A stretch of DNA of 64,000 nt from Eledone cirrhosa (taxonomy: Eukaryota), in the NCBI GenBank assembly GCA_964016885.1, contig OZ024742.1, forward strand, positions 287,370,001 to 287,434,000, given 5' to 3'. Shown in pieces: positions 14 to 61,328 of the stretch (the first letter of the stretch is position 1; every line of letters begins with the position of its first letter). The position numbers and the translations under genes were made by a program. The notes under the pieces are model-generated. The model was given only the letters and a program-made list of their open reading frames with translations. It did no database searches and was not told the DNA's origin.

Positions 14-2077
14 TGGGAGGAGGTTATAGTTCACTTGAAGCATTGTGTAATGAGGTATAAACGTTAGAATATGTGTAATAAGGCCAAGACAATGCAGACA
101 TGGACATAGAAAAAAGAATGCAATAGTGAGAGATATTGATGTGAATTCGTCTTTCACCTTGAATTTATTTAAATGTCCTTAATTTTCGAGATAATATCTC
201 TTCTTCGGAGGGAAGTAAAGGTCTCAGACCAGCGTCTTTAAATTTCTAATGAAGCCATGCTGACCGGAAATAGTATAGAGTATCTGTTCTAACTTTAATA
301 TCAAAGAATTAAAATTAGGTGGGTAAAGAGTAGTCTCCCTTTAAGAGGGGTTTGTTTATGTTTTGTTTTTGTTTTTGTTGTGTTTTTTAAAATTTTATAT
401 GCGTGCCTGTATATGTGTGTGGGAGAAAGCATGAAGGTGTAGGTATGTGGGTGTGTGTGTGTGTGAGTGTGGGAAGATAGGTCTAATCGTAAAAGTGGGG
501 GGTAGGTGTTATCTCGTGTTAGAACTGGTTTTGTGTGTGTATGTGTGAGAGAGAATAAGAGGAGGTGTAAGCGTGCGTGTGTGTGGGGTGTGTAAAGTGG
601 GGCTAGAGGCCCTATCAGGTTATAAATTGGGTGTTGAGCTCTAGTCTATTATTGATTGGTGGATGTGTTCTATCTATAATGAGTGCTTCCTTGATTCTAA
701 GATTGCCGAGGTTTCTTTCCTTAGTTTCTATCCTAACTGTTATGTTTTTATCAGTGTTTTTGCATTTAACTAGGTGTTTCTTAAATGAGGAAGCGTTAGT
801 ATTGAGGTGTTCTTTTATTCTTATGTGGAGTGGTCTGGTGGTGCTACCTACGTAGAAGTTGTTGCATTTGTCACACTCTAGTCTGTAAACTACGTAAGCC
901 TGGTGGCATAGGTCTGTGTCGTTGATGGGGCAGTTGGCTAGTCTGCAGCAGTTGTCATGTCTGGTGGAGTGTCTCTTAGCTAGCCGTCCGCGCAAAGAAG
1001 AACCCGAATGGGCCAGTTGAATATCCAGACCTTCTCGTCTGATGGCTCTGCGGATGGCTGTTGTTGTTTCTTCACTGAAGTGTGGGAGCTTCAGGAAGCA
1101 AGTGTTAGTGCCTCGGGTGTGGTGTCCTCTGTTCTTTCTGGCACGGTTTGTGGTGGATGTCGTGTATCCGTTCAGTTTGAGTACTTCCAGGAAATGTGTG
1201 GTGTGTGTGTCTCGGTCTCTGGCGTCGGTGCATTTGTTCTTGATACGTGCCAGTTCGTTCTTTATGTATCCGAACTTGGCACCGAGTGGGAGGGCCGATC
1301 TGAAATGTACGAACAGGTCCCTGCTGGCGGATTTTTTATAGAAGCAGGTGTGGATGTTGCCTTCCTCTGTTACCCTGAGTTGGAAGTCCAGCAGGGATAG
1401 GGATCCGCGGTCATCGGGGTGTTCTATGCTGAACTTTATACTGGCGTCCATGCTGGAGAATGTTGTGTATATTTTCTCTGCCTCCTCACGGGATGATGTA
1501 AGGATGAGTATGTCATCTACATATCGGGTGAAGAAGGCATGGGAATGGCAGGTGTTGAGGGCTCGGCATTCTAGCTGGTTCATGTAAGTGATGGCCAGCA
1601 GGCCAGAGAGGCTGGATCCCATGGGTAATCCTGTTGTCTGTCTGTATGTGTGGTGGTGGAAGGTGAAGTACGTGTTGTCTACTGTGAAGGACAAAAGTTG
1701 GTGTATGTCCGTCGGGTGGAGGCCGTAGCAGTGGATGTTCTCTGCGACCACGCAGTCCGTCAATAAATCGACAGCTGGGTGAGCGGGGACTGTAGTGTAG
1801 AGGGAGACAACGTCGAGGCTAAAAGCGTATTTATTAAGTTTAAGTTGTTCTGGCTGGAGTTGGTGTAATCTACGTATAACTTCGGCTTCATTAGAAGTTT
1901 AAAGACGCTGGTCTGAGACCTTTACTTCCCTCCGAAGAAGAGATATTATCTCGAAAATTAAGGACATTTAAATAAATTCAAGGTGAAAGACGAATTCACA
2001 TCAATATCTCTCACTATTGCATTCTTTTTTCTATGTCCATATCTGCATTGTCTTGGCCTTATTACACATATTCTAAC

Positions 2078-11195: not shown

Positions 11196-12830
11196 CATCC
11201 TTATTCTTTTAGCCTTCGACCGCCCTCTCCCCACACATATCCCCCACTAACACCACTAACACACTCCTCCTTTTCACCGCCAACCCCACAACTAACAATA
11301 CTAACACCTCCACCCCACACCCGACCACCCTTCCCCAACTAACATACTAACATCCCTCCTTTCTTCTCCCCCCTCCCCTTATCACACGCACACACACACC
11401 GGTATATATATACACGCGCTCACACTAAACACACACCCTACTACCACCACTAACCCTTACCCCCACACTTCCACCCCACCACCCCGCAACTAACATCACT
11501 AACACCCCCCGACCCCACGCACACGAACACACACACCCACTTACACCACCCACTCTACACGCAACTAATATCACTAACACCCCAACCCTACGCACACGAA
11601 CACACACACCCACTTACACCACCCACTCTACACACCCTACCACCACTGACCCCCACTAACACCCGCATTCAACCCTTTCCCCACCACCAGTATACTAACA
11701 CCCACTAACACCCCCTTCACCACACACACACTCATCCAAACACGCACACACACCAGTACACTACACTCCCTCCACCGGCCCCCACACCCTTCTCTTCCCG
11801 CTCCACCCACACCCTTTCTCACACACACACACATCCCACTAACACCTCTACTAATACACCCCCCTCCTCACTCCAACTTTCACACCTACCCATTCTCTCT
11901 CCTGTCCACGCACCTCCGCACACACTGACACACCGACTTTCTTCACTTACCATTCTACCCGACTGCTGTTATGCCCTGAATCTCTGACTCCTCCCCGCAC
12001 ACACAGACACACAACCCTCCTCCTGCCTTGACCCTCTGACCACTTCCTGTTGCGTGCGCACCCCACATCTCCCCTCTTCCGACCAACCCAACCACGGATT
12101 ACACACATTAGACATCGCTCCCAAGAATCAACCACATCCCAAGGATATTACCCAGCATTCCACCACATCCTCTACGGAACTACCTTAGGGACTTACCCAC
12201 GGACATACACTCAAAAACATTTTTTTCCCTCACGCCACCTACATGCACAACACGTATAAACACCACACACACATGCGTACCACCACATATTTACACACTC
12301 AGCCTCCGGAATCCTCTCCCCCACCCCTCTGACCCCTCCCCATCAACACACGCATACACACACCGACCTACACCCCACCCCACGCACACCTTATCCTGAA
12401 CATGCAACCCCGTTCTTCCCCCAACTCTTACTTTCACATACACACACACACACACACACACGTACACCTACAGACACACACCACCTTCAGCCCTCCCCGC
12501 TCGGACACCTCGCCTCCCTCTCCCCACTCCACCCGCCACCACCCCTACACGCCCCACATCCTTCCACCACCTGTTTTACTTCATGTTTATTTTTATTTTT
12601 ATTATACTTTTATATTTAATTTCATTTGTACCGTTTCCTCTCACCCCTTTTTTCTATATGTCTCTCCACCACTCCCTACACACCCTTGGAACTCTCTTAC
12701 CACACACTTTTCACCTGAAGAAGGGCTCATGCCCGAAACGTCGTTCCCCACCACCACCCCACTCTCAAGAGCGTGAAACTAATAAACCTTTGTTCGTACT
12801 GCCTCTCTGTTTTGTTCCCGTTCAATTTTT

Positions 12831-16614: not shown

Positions 16615-17200
16615 TGTAAATGGAAAAAATGAAACGAAATTTCATTTCTCACTCTTAGTACGGGTGTTACTTAAATATAAGTATGTATACGTAAATACAT
16701 ATATGTATACAGACGTACAGTAGTATGTGTATATATATACATACATGCACACATATATATATGTACGTATGGATTTACCGAGCATTTATTATAATGCTCG
16801 GTTTGTTTGTAAACAAACACACATCCCGAATTAACTCACTCGATATGCAAATTAGGCTGCTCAGGCGTTAATATGCATAAGGAAAGTATATACTTTCAGA
16901 CGTTCAATCATCTGGTAGGAAGGTATACGGTGCTGACGATAGCTAATAAGCTTGAAACTAGTACATCGTTCCTTTGTCAGTGTTGAACAAAAGGGCAACG
17001 ATGGTTGCTAAACATGTACGGCTTAATTCGGCATGTTTGTTTGTTTACAAACAAACCGAGCATTATAATAAATGTTCGGTAAATCCATACGTACATATAT
17101 ATATGTGTGCATATATGTATATATATACATACTACTGTACGTCTGTATACATATATGTATGTACGTATAAATACTTGTATTTACGTATATGTATATACAC
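16615..17200. mobile_element. Retrozyme-like fold-back element with HHR at 16928-16968 (+)
   Basis: Inverted arms about 16695-16833 and 17022-17160. cggtg-CTGACGA-tAGCT.aata.AGCT-t-GAAAC-ta-GTA-catcg. Confidence 0.75.
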
Positions 17201-19584: not shown

Positions 19585-19840
19585 GCTCGGTATGCAAATG
19601 AGGCTACTCAGCCGATGTATACTTAAGAAAATACTATATATTTCCAACTGTTCAACAGACTGGCAGAGGTATACAGTCCTGATGAAGGGTAATGACCCAG
19701 AAACATGTTGATTGTTCTTCAAAACCAGTATTGAACAAACTGGTGACGGTCGGTCACCGACACGGCACAGCTTCTAATCATGTTTGTTTGTTTACAAACG
19801 AATGGAACATTATTATTATTGTTCGATATAACCCATACGT

Positions 19841-19883
<43 letters not shown>

Positions 19884-20000
19884 CAGTTATATATATATGT
19901 ATATTTATATATATATGTGCGTGTGTGTGTACGTATGCATTCTTACTTCTATGCATCAGCTGTGTTAGAGCGAGAAATAAAATTCTTATTTTATTTTTAT
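19585..20000 (+). mobile_element. Retrozyme-like monomer with HHR at 19673-19715
   Basis: acagtc-CTGATGA-aGGGT.aatg.ACCC-a-GAAAC-at-GTT-gattgt, then tgtttgtttgtttacaaac, and a 3' gcgag plus AT-rich hairpin and T-rich end. Confidence 0.7.
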
Positions 20001-28667: not shown

Positions 28668-30470
28668 CTATCCGTTAGGGTATAATGTGGTGCTGTAATA
28701 CAGGGTTTTGTGCAATTTATGTTTACAAGCCGAAATTGCCTCAGATTTTTTGTTTAAGATGTGGTCAGTGGTGTAGAGTATTTCCAGGGCCTCAGCGGCG
28801 CAGAGGTCACATGGTCTTTTATTTCCGTTATACGATCTAGCCCTAGCTAGGATCTCCCAGTGTAACTTATATTGTGTGTGGTTGTCTTTTAGACTCCAGA
28901 TATAAGCTGAAAGTGATGTCATATTCCTTCTTAGAGGGTAACGAAAAAAATGGGTATGCATGTAAAGACGCTGTTTGAATCTCTTGGAGGTTAACCCTAT
29001 GTAGGCCCTACGGAACGTGGGTGTTTCAACCTTACATTTGTAGACAATGTTACTAGAGAGGCATTTCCCGGATAGGGAGCAATCAACCCGATTCCTACAA
29101 TTACAGTTAGTACTAACTACAGGGTTGCACGTGTTCCTACGGCTAGGTAGTTTAGCTAAATTTGAAGCAGTGATGTTATGTGCAAGGTTAGGAGTCGTAG
29201 AGTAAGAAATTTTAATAGTATTTCTATTAAAAATTTTACTATATTTATGTGTAGGGGGAAAATGCTTCGTAATAAGGGATAGAAAGATCTTAGCTAATGG
29301 TGTGGCCACCTCCATATTATATGGTGGGTTATACCATATAATGCGACGGGATCTATTTCTTCTAGGTCTATTCTCGTACTCTGTATATGCTACCTTATCG
29401 ACAAATCCACTGCGAGCAAGAGCTTCATTGTAATACGTGGAATGGTCGTTGAAAATATGCTCGTTAGTAGATAGACGGGAAAGCCTCAACGAAACGTTTC
29501 TTACCAGGTTCTTGGTTATGCTGGCAGGATGGTTGGAATGCTTACTTATGTAATTAAGCGTATCATTCGGCTTTCTATACGGGTAATACAAGCCATTCGA
29601 TAAATTGAGGGTAACGTCGAGGTAATTAACGACCGAGAGGTTGGCTTCAACCTGTATAGAGAGGTTGAAGCCTTTAAAGAAGGCTGTGAGTTCTTTTCTG
29701 AACCTGTCGCAAGCACGAGGGCCGCACTTAGTCATGGTCAAAATACCATAATCACGGTACAAACCACCGCCCGCGTTGGGGAATTCGTCCTTGATAGAGA
29801 AAAGAAGGAAAAGGCCGATAAGATCAGTAACCTCCGAAGAATCGCTGGCGCCCATACTCACGTCGAATGGGGTACTATTGGATTTTTTAATCCAAATAGA
29901 GTCATCGAAATTAATCACCAACTTACGGGCATTGAGGATGACATCAACTTCGAAATCCTTAACCACTGTGAGTGTTTTAGCGAAATTGATAGCTCTAAGG
30001 AGAAGTGGTAAAGTGATGGAGGAGTAGAAATTATTGATGTCGAATTGGATAAAACGGCAATGTTCCTTGTTACATATGCCGTTGAACCAATCAATCACCG
30101 CGAAAGAATTGTTCCACAGTGCAAGAGGGGCCAAACTTCTAATTTCAGGTATAATTCTATCAAGAATCCTTTTACTAAGTCTACCTAAATCGGACTTCGT
30201 AGGGTTAATAAGCTGAATAGAGGGGTTGTTCGGAAAATTGGATTTGTGATCCTTCAGGGTAAAGTGGGGAGAGATAGGGTCCAGAGGTTCGGTCCGGTCC
30301 AGGATGTTGAGATCAGAGGTGATTTTAAACCCAGCATCGTTGATTTCATTGATGACGCACCGATTAGTTTTACGGTAATCCTTAGTTACAGCATTATGTA
30401 GCAGTTGATGGTAAGTACTGCGCTCCACTTGATATAGATTGCCAGTTTTGTCGAAGTGGACGTGCACGGC
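28668..30470 (-). mobile_element. Penelope-like element 4: 599-aa 5'-truncated RT plus GIY-YIG (YRDD / CNC..CPL type, possibly Nematis-like); 3' region and pLTR extend to about 27690
   Basis: DKTGNLY, TLKDHK, LINPTKS, QFDINNFYSSI, MGASDS, LYRDYG (second catalytic Asp changed to Tyr), NYLDV, CNCRNRVDCSLSGKC, IVYKC..YIGLTSKRFKQR. Confidence 0.95.
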
Positions 30471-30501
30471 ATTAGAATCCTTTTATTATTACTACTAGTA
30501 C

Positions 30502-30565: not shown

Positions 30566-31145
30566 ATGAAATGACAGGAGGCTGGATTTGTGTAAATCCT
30601 TGAAAGGTTTATTATACTATGATCATTTCAATGACCGGGTTCCGTATGAATCCGGTGATATCATCAGGTATTCGAAATATAATACGTGAATGTAATAGAT
30701 AAAATCCATGGGGCTGAAAATCGAGGACCCGAGGGCGACCGCTATTCTGTTCCTTCAACTTCAGCCGGTCGCCCTGGAGTGAAGGAACAGAATAGACCGG
30801 CTGAAGTTGAAGGAACAGAATAGCGGTCGCCCTCGGGTCCTCGATTTTCAGCCCCATGGATTTTATCTATTACATTCACGTATTATATTTCGAATACCTG
30901 ATGATATCACCGGATTCATACGGAACCCGGTCATTGAAATGATCATAGTATAATAAACCTTTCAAGGTTTTACACAAATCCAGCCTCCTGTCATTTAATT
31001 ATAATATTTAACTCCGTAATAGCACCACCAACTACAAAAACAAAGACGATTGAACTGCCTTACGTTGAGTACTCTCTATATCATTGCATTACGATTGACC
31101 ATACGGAATAGACCAGCTCTATACAGTGGTGAACCTCAAACCTGA
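30563..31145. mobile_element. Fold-back pLTR palindrome (arms of about 205 bp, 30563-30770 and 30795-31004) plus tail; HHRs at 30614-30671 (-) and 30894-30951 (+)
   Basis: atac-CTGATGA-tatc-ACCGG..CCGGT-catt-GAAAT-gatc-ATA-gtat; near-perfect inverted arms. Confidence 0.88.
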
Positions 31146-38469: not shown

Positions 38470-38503
<34 letters not shown>

Positions 38504-38508
<5 letters not shown>

Positions 38509-41500
38509 AATTAAGTTAAAAATGTACATCCACATATGTATACTGAAATACTAGTATGCATATGAATACACACACGTGTACATATGTAGATGTACCGAGT
38601 TTTCACTGGTCACTTTACCGTGAGTGTCCAGCCATTCTGTATGTAAACACACAGATAAACCGGTTCTTAGAGTCATACTGGTCCTTGAGGAAACACCTTT
38701 CCTCTATTCTCCAGAAAGCCAGACAAGGAATATTGGACTAGTTTCGATGTTGTTACATCTCATCAGCAACATTTACCCATCTTCCGGCCTCTCTAGAGAA
38801 TCGTGAAAGCACATATCGTTATATGCTTTTTCTATGAAAATTAGTAGTGGGCAGACCAATTTGCATAGAGCGTGAGTACGTACCGGTTCAACGGAGACGA
38901 TAAAAACAAATAACGAAACGAAATTAAATTTCGTTTCGTTTGTAACTCACTTTTGCATGACTGACGCCTAAACAATTAAGTTAAAAATGTACATCCACAT
39001 ATGTATACTGAAATACTAGTATGCATATGAATACACACACGTGTACATATGTAGATGTACCGAGTTTTCACTGGTCACTTTACCGTGAGTGTCCAGCCAT
39101 TCTGTATGTAAACACACAGACAAACCGGTTCTTAGAGTCATACTGGTCCTTGAGGAAACACCTTTCCTCTATTCTCCAGAAAGCCAGACAAGGAATATTG
39201 GACTAGTTTCGATGTTGTTACATCTCATCAGCAACATTTACCCATCTTCCGGCCTCTCTAGAGAATCGTGAAAGCACATATCGTTATATGCTTTTTCTAT
39301 GAAAATTAGTAGTGGGCAGACCAATTTGCATAGAGCGTGAGTACGTACCGGTTCAACGGAGACGATAAAAACAAATAACGAAACGAAATTAAATTTCGTT
39401 TCGTTTGTAACTCACTTTTGCATGACTGACGCCTAAACAATTAAGTTAAAAATGTACATCCACATATGTATACTGAAATACTAGTATGCATATGAATACA
39501 CACACGTGTACATATGTAGATGTACCGAGTTTTCACTGGTCACTTTACCGTGAGTGTCCAGCCATTCTGTATGTAAACACACAGACAAACCGGTTCTTAG
39601 AGTCATACTGGTCCTTGAGGAAACACCTTTCCTCTATTCTCCAGAAAGCCAGACAAGGAATATTGGACTAGTTTCGATGTTGTTACATCTCATCAGCAAC
39701 ATTTACCCATCTTCCGGCCTCTCTAGAGAATCGTGAAAGCACATATCGTTATATGCTTTTTCTATGAAAATTAGTAGTGGGCAGACCAATTTGCATAGAG
39801 CGTGAGTACGTACCGGTTCAACGGAGACGATAAAAACAAATAACGAAACGAAATTAAATTTCGTTTCGTTTGTAACTCACTTTTGCATGACTGACGCCTA
39901 AACAATTAAGTTAAAAATGTACATCCACATATGTATACTGAAATACTAGTATGCATATGAATACACACACGTGTACATATGTAGATGTACCGAGTTTTCA
40001 CTGGTCACTTTACCGTGAGTGTCCAGCCATTCTGTATGTAAACACACAGACAAACCGGTTCTTAGAGTCATACTGGTCCTTGAGGAAACACCTTTCCTCT
40101 ATTCTCCAGAAAGCCAGACAAGGAATATTGGACTAGTTTCGATGTTGTTACATCTCATCAGCAACATTTACCCATCTTCCGGCCTCTCTAGAGAATCGTG
40201 AAAGCACATATCGTTATATGCTTTTTCTATGAAAATTAGTAGTGGGCAGACCAATTTGCATAGAGCGTGAGTACGTACCGGTTCAACGGAGACGATAAAA
40301 ACAAATAACGAAACGAAATTAAATTTCGTTTCGTTTGTAACTCACTTTTGCATGACTGACGCCTAAACAATTAAGTTAAAAATGTACATCCACATATGTA
40401 TACTGAAATACTAGTATGCATATGAATACACACACGTGTACATATGTAGATGTACCGAGTTTTCACTGGTCACTTTACCGTGAGTGTCCAGCCATTCTGT
40501 ATGTAAACACACAGACAAACCGGTTCTTAGAGTCATACTGGTCCTTGAGGAAACACCTTTCCTCTATTCTCCAGAAAGCCAGACAAGGAATATTGGACTA
40601 GTTTCGATGTTGTTACATCTCATCAGCAACATTTACCCATCTTCCGGCCTCTCTAGAGAATCGTGAAAGCACATATCGTTATATGCTTTTTCTATGAAAA
40701 TTAGTAGTGGGCAGACCAATTTGCATAGAGCGTGAGTACGTACCGGTTCAACGGAGACGATAAAAACAAATAACGAAACGAAATTAAATTTCGTTTCGTT
40801 TGTAACTCACTTTTGCATGACTGACGCCTAAACAATTAAGTTAAAAATGTACATCCACATATGTATACTGAAATACTAGTATGCATATGAATACACACAC
40901 GTGTACATATGTAGATGTACCGAGTTTTCACTGGTCACTTTACCGTGAGTGTCCAGCCATTCTGTATGTAAACACACAGACAAACCGGTTCTTAGAGTCA
41001 TACTGGTCCTTGAGGAAACACCTTTCCTCTATTCTCCAGAAAGCCAGACAAGGAATATTGGACTAGTTTCGATGTTGTTACATCTCATCAGCAACATTTA
41101 CCCATCTTCCGGCCTCTCTAGAGAATCGTGAAAGCACATATCGTTATATGCTTTTTCTATGAAAATTAGTAGTGGGCAGACCAATTTGCATAGAGCGTGA
41201 GTACGTACCGGTTCAACGGAGACGATAAAAACAAATAACGAAACGAAATTAAATTTCGTTTCGTTTGTAACTCACTTTTGCATGACTGACGCCTAAACAA
41301 TTAAGTTAAAAATGTACATCCACATATGTATACTGAAATACTAGTATGCATATGAATACACACACGTGTACATATGTAGATGTACCGAGTTTTCACTGGT
41401 CACTTTACCGTGAGTGTCCAGCCATTCTGTATGTAAACACACAGACAAACCGGTTCTTAGAGTCATACTGGTCCTTGAGGAAACACCTTTCCTCTATTCT

Positions 41501-44500
41501 CCAGAAAGCCAGACAAGGAATATTGGACTAGTTTCGATGTTGTTACATCTCATCAGCAACATTTACCCATCTTCCGGCCTCTCTAGAGAATCGTGAAAGC
41601 ACATATCGTTATATGCTTTTTCTATGAAAATTAGTAGTGGGCAGACCAATTTGCATAGAGCGTGAGTACGTACCGGTTCAACGGAGACGATAAAAACAAA
41701 TAACGAAACGAAATTAAATTTCGTTTCGTTTCGTTTCCTCAAGGACCAGTATGACTCTAAGAACCGGTTTGTCTGTGTGTTTACATACAGAATGGCTGGA
41801 CACTCACGGTAAAGTGACCAGTGAAAACTCGGTACATCTACATATGTACACGTGTGTGTATTCATATGCATACTAGTATTTCAGTATACATATGTGGATG
41901 TACATTTTTAACTTAATTGTTTAGGCGTCAGTCATGCAAAAGTGAGTTACAAACGAAACGAAATTTAATTTCGTTTCGTTATTTGTTTTTATCGTCTCCG
42001 TTGAACCGGTACGTACTCACGCTCTATGCAAATTGGTCTGCCCACTACTAATTTTCATAGAAAAAGCATATAACGATATGTGCTTTCACGATTCTCTAGA
42101 GAGGCCGGAAGATGGGTAAATGTTGCTGATGAGATGTAACAACATCGAAACTAGTCCAATATTCCTTGTCTGGCTTTCTGGAGAATAGAGGAAAGGTGTT
42201 TCCTCAAGGACCAGTATGACTCTAAGAACCGGTTTGTCTGTGTGTTTACATACAGAATGGCTGGACACTCACGGTAAAGTGACCAGTGAAAACTCGGTAC
42301 ATCTACATATGTACACGTGTGTGTATTCATATGCATACTAGTATTTCAGTATACATATGTGGATGTACATTTTTAACTTAATTGTTTAGGCGTCAGTCAT
42401 GCAAAAGTGAGTTACAAACGAAACGAAATTTAATTTCGTTTCGTTATTTGTTTTTATCGTCTCCGTTGAACCGGTACGTACTCACGCTCTATGCAAATTG
42501 GTCTGCCCACTACTAATTTTCATAGAAAAAGCATATAACGATATGTGCTTTCACGATTCTCTAGAGAGGCCGGAAGATGGGTAAATGTTGCTGATGAGAT
42601 GTAACAACATCGAAACTAGTCCAATATTCCTTGTCTGGCTTTCTGGAGAATAGAGGAAAGGTGTTTCCTCAAGGACCAGTATGACTCTAAGAACCGGTTT
42701 GTCTGTGTGTTTACATACAGAATGGCTGGACACTCACGGTAAAGTGACCAGTGAAAACTCGGTACATCTACATATGTACACGTGTGTGTATTCATATGCA
42801 TACTAGTATTTCAGTATACATATGTGGATGTACATTTTTAACTTAATTGTTTAGGCGTCAGTCATGCAAAAGTGAGTTACAAACGAAACGAAATTTAATT
42901 TCGTTTCGTTATTTGTTTTTATCGTCTCCGTTGAACCGGTACGTACTCACGCTCTATGCAAATTGGTCTGCCCACTACTAATTTTCATAGAAAAAGCATA
43001 TAACGATATGTGCTTTCACGATTCTCTAGAGAGGCCGGAAGATGGGTAAATGTTGCTGATGAGATGTAACAACATCGAAACTAGTCCAATATTCCTTGTC
43101 TGGCTTTCTGGAGAATAGAGGAAAGGTGTTTCCTCAAGGACCAGTATGACTCTAAGAACCGGTTTGTCTGTGTGTTTACATACAGAATGGCTGGACACTC
43201 ACGGTAAAGTGACCAGTGAAAACTCGGTACATCTACATATGTACACGTGTGTGTATTCATATGCATACTAGTATTTCAGTATACATATGTGGATGTACAT
43301 TTTTAACTTAATTGTTTAGGCGTCAGTCATGCAAAAGTGAGTTACAAACGAAACGAAATTTAATTTCGTTTCGTTATTTGTTTTTATCGTCTCCGTTGAA
43401 CCGGTACGTACTCACGCTCTATGCAAATTGGTCTGCCCACTACTAATTTTCATAGAAAAAGCATATAACGATATGTGCTTTCACGATTCTCTAGAGAGGC
43501 CGGAAGATGGGTAAATGTTGCTGATGAGATGTAACAACATCGAAACTAGTCCAATATTCCTTGTCTGGCTTTCTGGAGAATAGAGGAAAGGTGTTTCCTC
43601 AAGGACCAGTATGACTCTAAGAACCGGTTTGTCTGTGTGTTTACATACAGAATGGCTGGACACTCACGGTAAAGTGACCAGTGAAAACTCGGTACATCTA
43701 CATATGTACACGTGTGTGTATTCATATGCATACTAGTATTTCAGTATACATATGTGGATGTACATTTTTAACTTAATTGTTTAGGCGTCAGTCATGCAAA
43801 AGTGAGTTACAAACGAAACGAAATTTAATTTCGTTTCGTTATTTGTTTTTATCGTCTCCGTTGAACCGGTACGTACTCACGCTCTATGCAAATTGGTCTG
43901 CCCACTACTAATTTTCATAGAAAAAGCATATAACGATATGTGCTTTCACGATTCTCTAGAGAGGCCGGAAGATGGGTAAATGTTGCTGATGAGATGTAAC
44001 AACATCGAAACTAGTCCAATATTCCTTGTCTGGCTTTCTGGAGAATAGAGGAAAGGTGTTTCCTCAAGGACCAGTATGACTCTAAGAACCGGTTTGTCTG
44101 TGTGTTTACATACAGAATGGCTGGACACTCACGGTAAAGTGACCAGTGAAAACTCGGTACATCTACATATGTACACGTGTGTGTATTCATATGCATACTA
44201 GTATTTCAGTATACATATGTGGATGTACATTTTTAACTTAATTGTTTAGGCGTCAGTCATGCAAAAGTGAGTTACAAACGAAACGAAATTTAATTTCGTT
44301 TCGTTATTTGTTTTTATCGTCTCCGTTGAACCGGTACGTACTCACGCTCTATGCAAATTGGTCTGCCCACTACTAATTTTCATAGAAAAAGCATATAACG
44401 ATATGTGCTTTCACGATTCTCTAGAGAGGCCGGAAGATGGGTAAATGTTGCTGATGAGATGTAACAACATCGAAACTAGTCCAATATTCCTTGTCTGGCT

Positions 44501-45705
44501 TTCTGGAGAATAGAGGAAAGGTGTTTCCTCAAGGACCAGTATGACTCTAAGAACCGGTTTGTCTGTGTGTTTACATACAGAATGGCTGGACACTCACGGT
44601 AAAGTGACCAGTGAAAACTCGGTACATCTACATATGTACACGTGTGTGTATTCATATGCATACTAGTATTTCAGTATACATATGTGGATGTACATTTTTA
44701 ACTTAATTGTTTAGGCGTCAGTCATGCAAAAGTGAGTTACAAACGAAACGAAATTTAATTTCGTTTCGTTATTTGTTTTTATCGTCTCCGTTGAACCGGT
44801 ACGTACTCACGCTCTATGCAAATTGGTCTGCCCACTACTAATTTTCATAGAAAAAGCATATAACGATATGTGCTTTCACGATTCTCTAGAGAGGCCGGAA
44901 GATGGGTAAATGTTGCTGATGAGATGTAACAACATCGAAACTAGTCCAATATTCCTTGTCTGGCTTTCTGGAGAATAGAGGAAAGGTGTTTCCTCAAGGA
45001 CCAGTATGACTCTAAGAACCGGTTTGTCTGTGTGTTTACATACAGAATGGCTGGACACTCACGGTAAAGTGACCAGTGAAAACTCGGTACATCTACATAT
45101 GTACACGTGTGTGTATTCATATGCATACTAGTATTTCAGTATACATATGTGGATGTACATTTTTAACTTAATTGTTTAGGCGTCAGTCATGCAAAAGTGA
45201 GTTACAAACGAAACGAAATTTAATTTCGTTTCGTTATTTGTTTTTATCGTCTCCGTTGAACCGGTACGTACTCACGCTCTATGCAAATTGGTCTGCCCAC
45301 TACTAATTTTCATAGAAAAAGCATATAACGATATGTGCTTTCACGATTCTCTAGAGAGGCCGGAAGATGGGTAAATGTTGCTGATGAGATGTAACAACAT
45401 CGAAACTAGTCCAATATTCCTTGTCTGGCTTTCTGGAGAATAGAGGAAAGGTGTTTCCTCAAGGACCAGTATGACTCTAAGAACCGGTTTGTCTGTGTGT
45501 TTACATACAGAATGGCTGGACACTCACGGTAAAGTGACCAGTGAAAACTCGGTACATCTACATATGTACACGTGTGTGTATTCATATGCATACTAGTATT
45601 TCAGTATACATATGTGGATGTACATTTTTAACTTAATTGTTTAGGCGTCAGTCATGCAAAAGTGAGTTACAAACGAAACGAAATTTAATTTCGTTTCGTT
45701 ATTTG

Positions 45706-45712
<7 letters not shown>
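38504..45712. mobile_element. Retrozyme-like array: about 15.5 copies of a 465-bp HHR-containing monomer in two inverted arms (38504-41731, HHR on -; 41732-45712, HHR on +), inserted in (TA)n
   Basis: Exact 465-bp period, near-identical units, 7 + 8 HHRs, (TA)n on both sides and no coding potential. Confidence 0.92.
42115..42165 (+). ncRNA. Minimal type I hammerhead ribozyme (representative; repeats every 465 bp), predicted cleavage after C42156
   Basis: aatgttg-CTGATGA-GATGT.aaca.ACATC-GAAAC-ta-GTC-caatatt: complete core, stem I, stem II and palindromic stem III ACTAGT. Confidence 0.92.
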
Positions 45713-45746
<34 letters not shown>

Positions 45747-52897: not shown

Positions 52898-53117
52898 GTG
52901 GTAGAACACTGGAAGGTAATATCCGTAGTGGTAGAGCACTCAGTCCATGGGACGAGTTAGGTAGAAGTGGTTACACAACAATTAGTTCACCATACCGAGA
53001 ACAATTGTTTCACCTTAGCGGATCCTCAGCTCGTAATGGACATGGTTATACTAGCTGAGGATCTGCTAAGGCGAAACAATTGTTCTCGGTATGGTGAACT
53101 AATTGTGTAACCACTTC

Positions 53118-53120
<3 letters not shown>
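52898..53120. mobile_element. Fold-back pLTR with HHRs at 52996-53033 (-) and about 53052-53089 (+)
   Basis: Reverse complement cgag-CTGAGGA-tCC.gctaa.GG-t-GAAAC-aatt-GTT-ctcg; arms of about 68 bp plus a tail. Confidence 0.8.
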
Positions 53121-53508: not shown

Positions 53509-54675
53509 TAAACAATTAAGTTAAAGTGTACATCTACATATGTATACGGAAGTACTAGTATGCATATAAATACACACATGTATACATATGTACATGTACC
53601 GAGTTTTTCACTAGACACTTTACAGTGAGTGTCCAGCTAGTCTGTATGTAAACAAACAGACGAACCGGGTTTTAAAGTCATACGAGTTTTCAAGGAAACA
53701 CACTTCCTCTATTCTCCAGAGAGCCAGACAGGAATATTGGACTAGTTTCGATGTTATTACATCTCATCAGCAATATATACCTATCTTCCGGCTTCTCTGG
53801 AGAATTGTAAAAGCACATATCGTTATATGCTTTTTCTATGAAAATCAGTAGTGGGCAGACTAATTTGCATAGAACGTGAGTCATTGTACGCGCCGGTTCA
53901 GCGGAAACGATAAAAACAAATAACGAAACGAAATTAAATTTCGTTTCGCTTCTAACTCACTTTTGTTTACATACATCTAACTCGTCTGTTTGTTTACATA
54001 CAGACTAGCTGGACACTCACTGTAAAGTGTCTAGTGAAAAACTCGGTACATGTACATATGTATACATGTGTGTATTTATATGCATACTAGTACTTCCGTA
54101 TACATATGTAGATGTACACTTTAACTTAATTGTTTAAGCGTCAGTCATACAAAAGTGAGTTAGAAGCGAAACGAAATTTAATTTCGTTTCGTTATTTGTT
54201 TTTATCGTTTCCGCTGAACCGGCGCGTACAATGACTCACGTTCTATGCAAATTAGTCTGCCCACTACTGATTTTCATAGAAAAAGCATATAACGATATGT
54301 GCTTTTACAATTCTCCAGAGAAGCCGGAAGATAGGTATATATTGCTGATGAGATGTAATAACATCGAAACTAGTCCAATATTCCTGTCTGGCTCTCTGGA
54401 GAATAGAGGAAGTGTGTTTCCTTGAAAACTCGTATGACTTTAAAACCCGGTTCGTCTGTTTGTTTACATACAGACTAGCTGGACACTCACTGTAAAGTGT
54501 CTAGTGAAAAACTCGGTACATGTACATATGTATACATGTGTGTATTTATATGCATACTAGTACTTCCGTATACATATGTAGATGTACACTTTAACTTAAT
54601 TGTTTAAGCGTCAGTCATACAAAAGTGAGTTAGAAGCGAAACGAAATTTAATTTCGTTTCGTTATTTGTTTTTAT
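53509..54675. mobile_element. Second, diverged retrozyme insertion (470-bp monomer; about 1 unit on -, about 1.5 units on +); HHRs at 53730-53782 (-) and about 54333-54385 (+)
   Basis: Colinear with the 465-bp unit and has the same termini. atattg-CTGATGA-GATGT.aata.ACATC-GAAAC-ta-GTC-caatat. Confidence 0.92.
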
Positions 54676-60100: not shown

Positions 60101-61328
60101 ATACATTAGGGAACACAGCCGGACTCATACATTAGGGAACTCATACGTACACATACATTAGGGAACACAGACGTACTCATACATTAGGGAACACAGACGT
60201 ACTCATACATTAGGGAACTCATACGTACACATACATTAGGGAACTCATACGTACACATACATTAGGAAACACAGACGTACACATACATTAGGGAACACAG
60301 CCGTACTCAAACATTAGGGAACTCATACGTACACATACATTAGAGAACTCATACGTACACATACATTAGGGAACACAGACGTACACATACATTAGGGAAC
60401 TCATACGTACACATACATTAGGGAACACATACGTACACATACATTAGGGAACACATACGTACACATATATTAGGAAACACAGCCGTACTCATACATTAGG
60501 GAACTCATACGTACACATACATTAGGGAACACATACGTACACATACATTAGGGAACACAGACGTACACATACATTAGGGAACTCATACGTACACATACAT
60601 TAGGGAACACATACGTACTCATACATTAGGGAACACAGCCGTACTCATACATTAGGGAACTCATACGTACACATACATTAGGGAACACATACGTACTCAT
60701 ACATTAGGGAACTCATACGTACACATACATTAGGGAACACATACGTACACATACATTAGGGAACACAGACGTACTCATACATTAGGGAACTCATACGTAC
60801 ACATACATTAGGGAACTCATACGTACACATACATTAGGGAACTCATACGTACACATACATTAGGGAACACAGCCGTACTCATACATTAGGGAACTCATAC
60901 GTACTCATACATTAGGGAACACAGACGTACTCATACATTAGGGAACACAGACGTACTCATACATTAGGGAACTCATACGTACACATACATTAGGGAACTC
61001 ATACGTACACATACATTAGGGAACACATACGTACACATACATTAGGGAACACAGACGTACTCATACATTAGGGAACTCATACGTACACATACATTAGGGA
61101 ACACATACGTACTCATACATTAGGGAACACAGCCGTACTCATACATTAGGGAACACAGCCGTACTCATACATTAGGGAACTCATACGTACACATACATTA
61201 GGGAACACATACGTACTCATACATTAGGGAACACAGCCGTACTCATACATTAGGGAACACAGCCGTACTCATACATTAGGGAACTCATACGTACACATAC
61301 ATTAGGGAACACAGACGTACTCATACAT
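60101..61328. repeat. 26-bp minisatellite ATACATTAGGGAAC(A/T)CA(G/T)(A/C)CGTAC(A/T)C, about 47 copies
   Basis: Direct reading; one TTAGGG per unit. Confidence 0.95.

Follow-up and report, generated by a model that had tools for sequence, protein, structure and literature searches.

Putative editing scars and coupled insertion ends suggest a circular RNA template for a hammerhead retrozyme array in Eledone cirrhosa

The tandem array at 38504..45712 of the window (the whole stretch of 64,000 nucleotides of Eledone cirrhosa contig OZ024742.1 analysed here) appears, with reasonable probability, to have been copied from one ADAR-edited, probably circular, monomer RNA of a non-autonomous retrozyme mobilised by a Penelope-like element (PLE). 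The architecture of the insertion, its end points, its A>G pattern and the conservation of its fold are read directly from the sequence, and this explanation accounts for them best. The retrozyme class and its link to PLEs have already been published. In a literature search that covered few subscription journals, we found neither a paper describing editing scars in PLEs or retrozymes nor a report of coupled insertion ends.

Repeat unit and insertion architecture

The unit is 465 bp long and tandemly repeated, contains no open reading frame of 110 aa or more, and contributes 15 hammerhead cores to the array. A search with the core pattern gave 3,222 matches in the 3.0-Gb assembly, compared with none for the reversed control pattern. 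Unit position 1 was placed at window position 42157, directly 3' of the predicted cleavage site. The main features are the following:

38504..45712, no single strand: family 1 insertion, two divergent arms of the 465-bp unit
38473-38505 and 45710-45744: (TA)n flanking the array
38504..41731, minus strand: left arm with 6.9 units; its outer end is the "short" start site, unit position 232
41733..45712, plus strand: right arm with 8.6 units; its outer end is the "long" start site, unit position 301
42026..42033, plus strand: ATGCAAAT, octamer-like motif
42063..42086, plus strand: hairpin aaagcatata/tatgtgcttt, upstream of the basal stem
42091..42186, plus strand: basal stem domain with the hammerhead; arms 42091-42109 and 42169-42186, 18 pairs, bulge at 42103
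42114..42166, plus strand: whole type I hammerhead, from sequence
42114-42125 with 42157-42166, plus strand: stem I, with a UA bulge at 42117-42118
42126-42132 and 42147-42149, plus strand: hammerhead core, with stem II at 42133-42146
42150..42155, plus strand: ACTAGT palindrome replacing helix III (ACATGT in family 3)
after C42156, plus strand: predicted cleavage, from sequence and alignment
42383..42457, plus strand: "tail" between the fixed end points (unit positions 227/232 to 301), holding the hairpin 42417-42445
53509..54675, no single strand: second family 1 insertion, about 89% identical, the variant of the preliminary description
53509-53965, minus strand: its minus arm, ending at position 232
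53984-54675, plus strand: its plus arm, ending at position 301
16617..17187, no single strand: family 2 copy, same inverted layout
19586..19924, plus strand: family 3 copy

By its sequence, the unit of the array can be classed among the metazoan non-LTR retrozymes, with insertions of PLE type. It forms tandem non-coding units a few hundred bp long with one predicted type I hammerhead each, and family 1 is dispersed, multicopy and apparently devoid of coding capacity; the RT plus GIY-YIG reading frame of an autonomous PLE is absent from the unit, which has no ORF. The homologous family 2 has a 424-bp unit, 25,333 pattern matches and 290 identities to family 1 over the whole unit, and family 3 has 269 pattern matches, including a few variants of family 2.

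The geometry of insertion was assessed in 121 family 1 insertions from 139 merged stretches, at loci chosen non-randomly (by best hit or first listing), with the copies projected on the window unit by BLAST. The insertions comprise 80 closed two-arm, 37 single-arm, 2 open and 2 complex cases. In 72 of the 80 closed two-arm insertions one end falls at 296-302 and the other at 225-232; among the remainder none is long/long, one is short/short and seven have one other end. Such strict pairing of one long with one short end suggests that both primings took place on one RNA. The fixed ends are abutted by (TA)n in 181 of 193 cases, and in contigs of one public run (X1) loose (AT)n ends occur at 42383 and 42457. 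The homologous end pair of family 2 is 221/277, and the same layout is seen in approximately 17 of 20 insertions, as judged by eye. The inner ends, in turn, are spread uniformly along the unit (160 ends, p=0.48), with one of the 160 at the cleavage site (expected 1.0), and 135 of the 160 arms exceed 305 nt, i.e., they are longer than a cut monomer allows. These arm lengths and the uniform inner ends rule out a linear cleaved monomer as the template.

Tandem plus inverted insertions with a tail at one end, and AT-rich or (TA)n targets, are the hallmarks of PLE mobilisation, and judging from these hallmarks family 1 is likely a non-autonomous retrozyme mobilised by a PLE. In the window and in 170 screened loci, no partner PLE joined to the units (tblastn with seven window ORF fragments; low-stringency blastn) and no sequence in common with an autonomous PLE's pLTR was found. 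The window does harbor a PLE fragment at 615-1898 (minus strand), a 427-aa open frame with RT and GIY-YIG domains, which has no sequence link to the retrozyme. A second, 604-aa PLE-like frame with no Pfam hit lies at 28668-30482 (minus strand), beside a small inverted hammerhead element (30626-30939) whose stem II, like that of family 2, has U·U at its base.

Arrays are also enlarged by local DNA duplications, visible as block repeats; only such local blocks were seen, and regular higher-order periodicity across both arms, as from a multimer circle, is absent. An older array (L190/L230, G000:C1 about 95.644-95.657 Mb), which is open at either end and has at least 27 units, contains a block duplication of roughly 10 units, a satellite-like growth of a retrozyme arm. 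In L037/L041/L048, alternating units lack 38 bp of the TA-rich hairpin. At further loci (L045, L097, L105 and L139/L228) family 1 units directly adjoin family 2 or another subfamily, or are nested with them, which suggests either a switch of template or insertion of one into the TA-rich hairpin of the other. Elsewhere in the window, a small inverted element at 52990-53120, with two hammerhead-like cores and the palindrome ACAATTGT, represents a further family; additional hammerhead-like cores of several unrelated families lie at 12715, 14684, 16092, 20185, 26833, 27393, 34471, 34658 and 59212, and a 26-bp minisatellite of 47 copies occupies 60101-61328.

Just upstream of the basal stem, families 1, 2 and 3 all have the conserved ATGCAAAT followed by a TATA-like hairpin; in family 1 the motif is intact in 113 of 117 insertions. 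Motif and hairpin together could possibly form an internal promoter. An snRNA-type promoter has been reported for newt satellite 2 (PMC2220036). We rejected a promoter of this type, built from an octamer and a PSE as in host snRNA genes: the upstream regions of host U2 genes (four inspected, two aligned) gave no convincing match and no fixed octamer, and the best match to the unit, at 11 points, was at chance level.

Probable editing scars and the template of the array

Compared with each of its four nearest insertions, the window array shows nine differences, and all nine are A>G on the ribozyme strand. They are present in all 15-16 copies and in both arms, and the combination is absent from every other locus checked. 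The sites are as follows:

42103, 42114, 42122, 42208, 42209, 42259, 42273, 42389 and 42401, plus strand: array-wide A>G set (in the comparison with one of the four nearest insertions, unit position 70 takes the place of 42103 as the ninth site)

Two marker pairs within the set are private to the array: all 16 assembly matches to 52G/53G and all 15 to 233G/245G lie inside it, and contigs of four public runs (their kind unrecorded) have A at those of the marker sites that they cover.

The tally was extended to 117 insertions, one of a duplicated pair having been left out. Among changes shared throughout an insertion, 42 are A>G (25 of them called from only 2-3 copies) versus 9 T>C, compared with 53 versus 94 among single-copy changes (p=1e-8); the T>C excess of the latter, on the ribozyme strand, comes mainly from older insertions. 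Without the two most edited insertions the shared changes still number 26 A>G versus 9 T>C. At least one insertion-wide A>G change occurs in 21 insertions, and two further insertions are heavily changed, one with 7 such changes and the other (L342) with about 9. None of the 42 insertion-wide A>G changes is preceded by G (background 18%), compared with 17 of the 53 single-copy A>G changes; 27 of the 42 follow U, and 15 are followed by G (background 18%). ADAR enzymes prefer G as the 3' neighbour. Being strand-specific and clustered, with 5' G avoided and 3' G favoured, the pattern matches that of a putative ADAR-edited template, and read as such the scars imply a past RNA stage of the element. 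The host genome has ADAR genes, one exon of which is 95% identical to an Octopus vulgaris ADAR2-type editase. In family 2, a replicate of 35 insertions, mostly picked for near-identity, yielded 3 A>G and no T>C among 20 shared changes.

Gene conversion in a DNA satellite, with hairpins and A>G changes arising from DNA-level processes or assembly error, would also yield identical copies, as seen in young arrays, and AT-rich palindromes are strand-symmetric. We consider this explanation very improbable, since the insertions are dispersed and their fixed ends coupled, the A>G bias follows the ribozyme strand in both arm orientations as well as the ADAR neighbour rule, and the single-copy mutations are free of A>G bias.

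A more serious alternative dispenses with the circle: an edited unit was inserted and expanded by unequal DNA exchange, and an uncleaved multimer transcript was then twin-primed. The local block duplications inside arms are in line with this course of events, as is the spread of edited alleles to several insertions, and a PLE assayed in vitro used unprocessed RNA, hammerhead cleavage being unnecessary (PMC11167929). However, the assembly contains no donor with the window marker pairs. Moreover, linear multimers that were edited and then copied should carry edits unit by unit, matching by unit index across the two arms. In 67 regular two-arm insertions, 289 testable variants are confined to a single arm; of the others, 1 is out of register and 25 are in register. 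Of the latter, 23 lie at positions 214-218 and were dropped as an alignment artefact of terminal copies, and the remaining two are not A>G, so that no unit-specific A>G is in register across the arms. Three or more unit-specific A>G changes were found in only 3 of 705 copies, all in one chimeric locus, leaving no clean unit-specific cluster. By comparison, 26 A>G changes are common to all copies of both arms. In addition, positions 233 and 245 fall between the start sites, and on a linear dimer each of these rare edits would therefore have to have occurred two times. All told, we regard the alternative without a circle as unlikely.

Array-wide A>G changes that are not unit-specific suggest that a single unit templated each edited array. 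Such a single-unit template would be either a circle or an earlier one-unit insertion expanded in DNA, and on the pattern of the scars we think it rather likely that it was circular RNA. The double edit 368G+382G is common to four insertions, which indicates that an edit can be inherited; given such inheritance, the window array could also derive from a homogeneous donor array absent from the sample.

Conservation of the fold and differences between the window variants

The preliminary description had interpreted the base changes between the window unit and the 53.5-54.7 kb variant as structure-preserving, and as a sign of selection on an RNA rather than of a DNA satellite. Its structural observations are borne out. 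The hammerhead sits on an 18-bp stem that includes three G·U pairs and a single bulged base (G42103). In the variant, G-C replaces two of the basal-stem G·U pairs and A replaces the bulged G; stem I has A-U in place of the G·U (42122), and loop II reads AATA instead of AACA. The core CTGATGA...GAAACTAGTC is identical in the two, and both extra hairpins are present (42063-42086, and 41952-41980, recurring at 42417-42445). All of these swaps are one-sided transitions and not covariation; the variant also has an A>T at the seventh stem I pair (giving T·T) and a 1-nt deletion, neither of which had been listed. In the alignment, stem I extends beyond the UA bulge via RGG/CCU. The palindrome that replaces helix III likely mediates the pairing of two ribozymes in a dimeric form.

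The plus-strand domain folds better than its shuffles (z -3.8 for the window unit and -6.6 for the variant, with 0 of 200 shuffles as stable), whereas the minus strand of the window unit shows no excess folding (z -0.6). No Rfam family matched the unit at gathering level; Hammerhead_HH9 scored 35.7 bits (E 4e-7), under its cut-off of 52.

Within family 1, the two basal-stem G·U swaps separate subfamilies, the G·U pairs being kept in 52/117 and 55/117 insertions; loop II alternates between 57 and 59 insertions, and the bulge is G in 35/117. The G of the stem I G·U, by comparison, occurs in only 2/117 insertions and belongs to the nine array-wide A>G changes. It is likely an editing scar and, as such, a weak sign of selection: A>G turns an A-U pair into G·U, so editing alone mimics a structure-preserving swap with no need for selection.

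It might nevertheless be argued that the variant differences are mainly compensatory and were kept by selection on RNA structure. In the helices of the preliminary description, spread alleles (those in at least three insertions) break pairs in 3 of 14 cases, compared with 84 of 125 single-copy changes (p=0.001). Over the whole unit the figures are 24/86 and 281/589 (type-stratified p=0.012). Two-sided changes also occur within family 1, namely A-U to U-A in stem II (22 insertions) and A-U to G-C in hairpin 36-45 (13 insertions). The excess, however, resides mostly in A/G changes, which editing biases. Without them, the helices give 3/7 versus 70/90 (p=0.06) and the whole unit p=0.056; C/T changes alone show no difference in either (1/3 versus 12/32, and p=0.6). 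One common subfamily, moreover, has an A·C mismatch in the long basal stem (16-17 insertions). Invariance of the core within family 1 is non-significant (0/86 versus 10/589, p=0.25) and partly built in by the pattern-based sampling. Selection within family 1 thus appears weak once A/G changes are removed.

Between families, the signal is stronger. In an alignment of 19 hand-picked domains of 217 distinct ones, whose rows form three clusters and represent few independent events, 20 of 36 pairs change on both sides, including 5/10 in stem I, 3/5 in stem II and 1/3 in the palindrome; 85% of cells are paired, versus 33-42% when the alignment is slid. The covariation score was reached by 0 of 500 shuffles and the pair count by 46 of 500. 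The outermost and uppermost pairs of the long stem fail in this register in families 2 and 3, and its inner part covaries. The predicted hammerhead fold is conserved by covariation between families.

Predominantly compensatory selection would account for this between-family conservation and not for the private changes of the window array, and is rather doubtful as an explanation of the latter; it complements the editing-based reading. The claim of a hammerhead retrozyme with an RNA stage, rather than a plain DNA satellite, is upheld, and the fold is conserved across homologous families; the variant swaps themselves are weak evidence of selection. The fold is conserved at depth, and the swaps between the two window variants are probably in part editing scars.

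Proposed mechanism and comparison with known systems

In the mechanism that we propose, multimeric transcripts would self-cleave via dimeric hammerheads and be ligated into unit circles, part of which ADAR would edit. A Penelope-type GIY-YIG/RT complex would nick both strands in (TA)n, and the same RNA would be primed at two places, unit positions ~301 and ~230. Reverse transcription from each start would run past the ligated cleavage site a variable number of times, with the two cDNAs joining at random points. Local DNA duplications within the arms may follow, and edited units may found small lineages. As a general statement, that octopus retrozyme arrays are rolling-circle reverse transcripts of single ribozyme-made circles, twice primed by one Penelope-type complex and barcoded by ADAR edits, we favour this model slightly.

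The edits would serve as barcodes of single molecules and the coupled end points would fix the geometry of priming; together they make a circle template and PLE tandem-plus-inverted insertion testable both from genomes and with a defined 465-nt RNA. If the model is true, barcoded rolling-circle arrays would be genomic proof of a circular intermediate, and RNA editing would be a heritable mutator that drives subfamily evolution and imitates structure-preserving selection. In heavily editing hosts, G·U/Watson-Crick swaps in elements can reflect mutation bias and call for caution.

Metazoan non-LTR retrozymes consist of low-GC units without coding capacity, arranged in tandem, each containing a single type I hammerhead, and are present in thousands of copies (PMC7229834; bioRxiv 10.64898/2026.07.22.740005). 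Their mobilisation by PLEs was proposed by Cervera & de la Peña 2020 (PMC7229834) and by Li, Clavereau & Pollet 2026 (bioRxiv 10.64898/2026.07.22.740005). In the sections of these two sources drawn on here, circular RNA as the template of retrotransposition is a proposal, and reverse transcription of circles into tandem cDNA is put forward in the Discussion of PMC7229834. Like the elements described there, the window family is low in GC and has a stable predicted circle. Its unit of 465 bp is slightly above their range of 150-450 bp, and it shows inverted two-arm insertions with coupled fixed ends and putative ADAR scars, neither of which is described in those sections; the words "octopus", "cephalopod" and "inverted" have no occurrence in PMC7229834. 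Expression has been shown for metazoan non-LTR retrozymes, whereas the window family is known here from its sequence.

EN+ PLEs form tandem and inverted, 5'-truncated copies with a tail at one end in AT-rich or (TA)n targets, and have two internal RT start sites, both DNA strands being extended (PMC11167929; PMC8557442). The window family shares with them the inversion, the one-sided tail, the AT-rich target and, apparently, the two RT start sites. It differs, as far as the cited descriptions go, in having no ORF, a tail of 69-74 nt versus 30-40, and arms that reach 18 units.

Metazoan type I hammerheads whose helix III is a palindrome of 1-2 bp act as dimers (PMC4209133). The predicted ribozymes of the window families resemble them in a helix I of 6-7 bp, a short helix II, the palindromic ACUAGU/ACAUGU and covariation between families, and differ from those reported there in that families 2 and 3 have U·U or A·A in place of the usual G10.1-C11.1 pair. 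As in ADAR-hypermutated RNA viruses (PMC5630973), the A>G changes are clustered and avoid a 5' G; unlike the viral changes described, they appear to have been fixed in host chromosomal DNA through reverse transcription, and are repeated in every unit.
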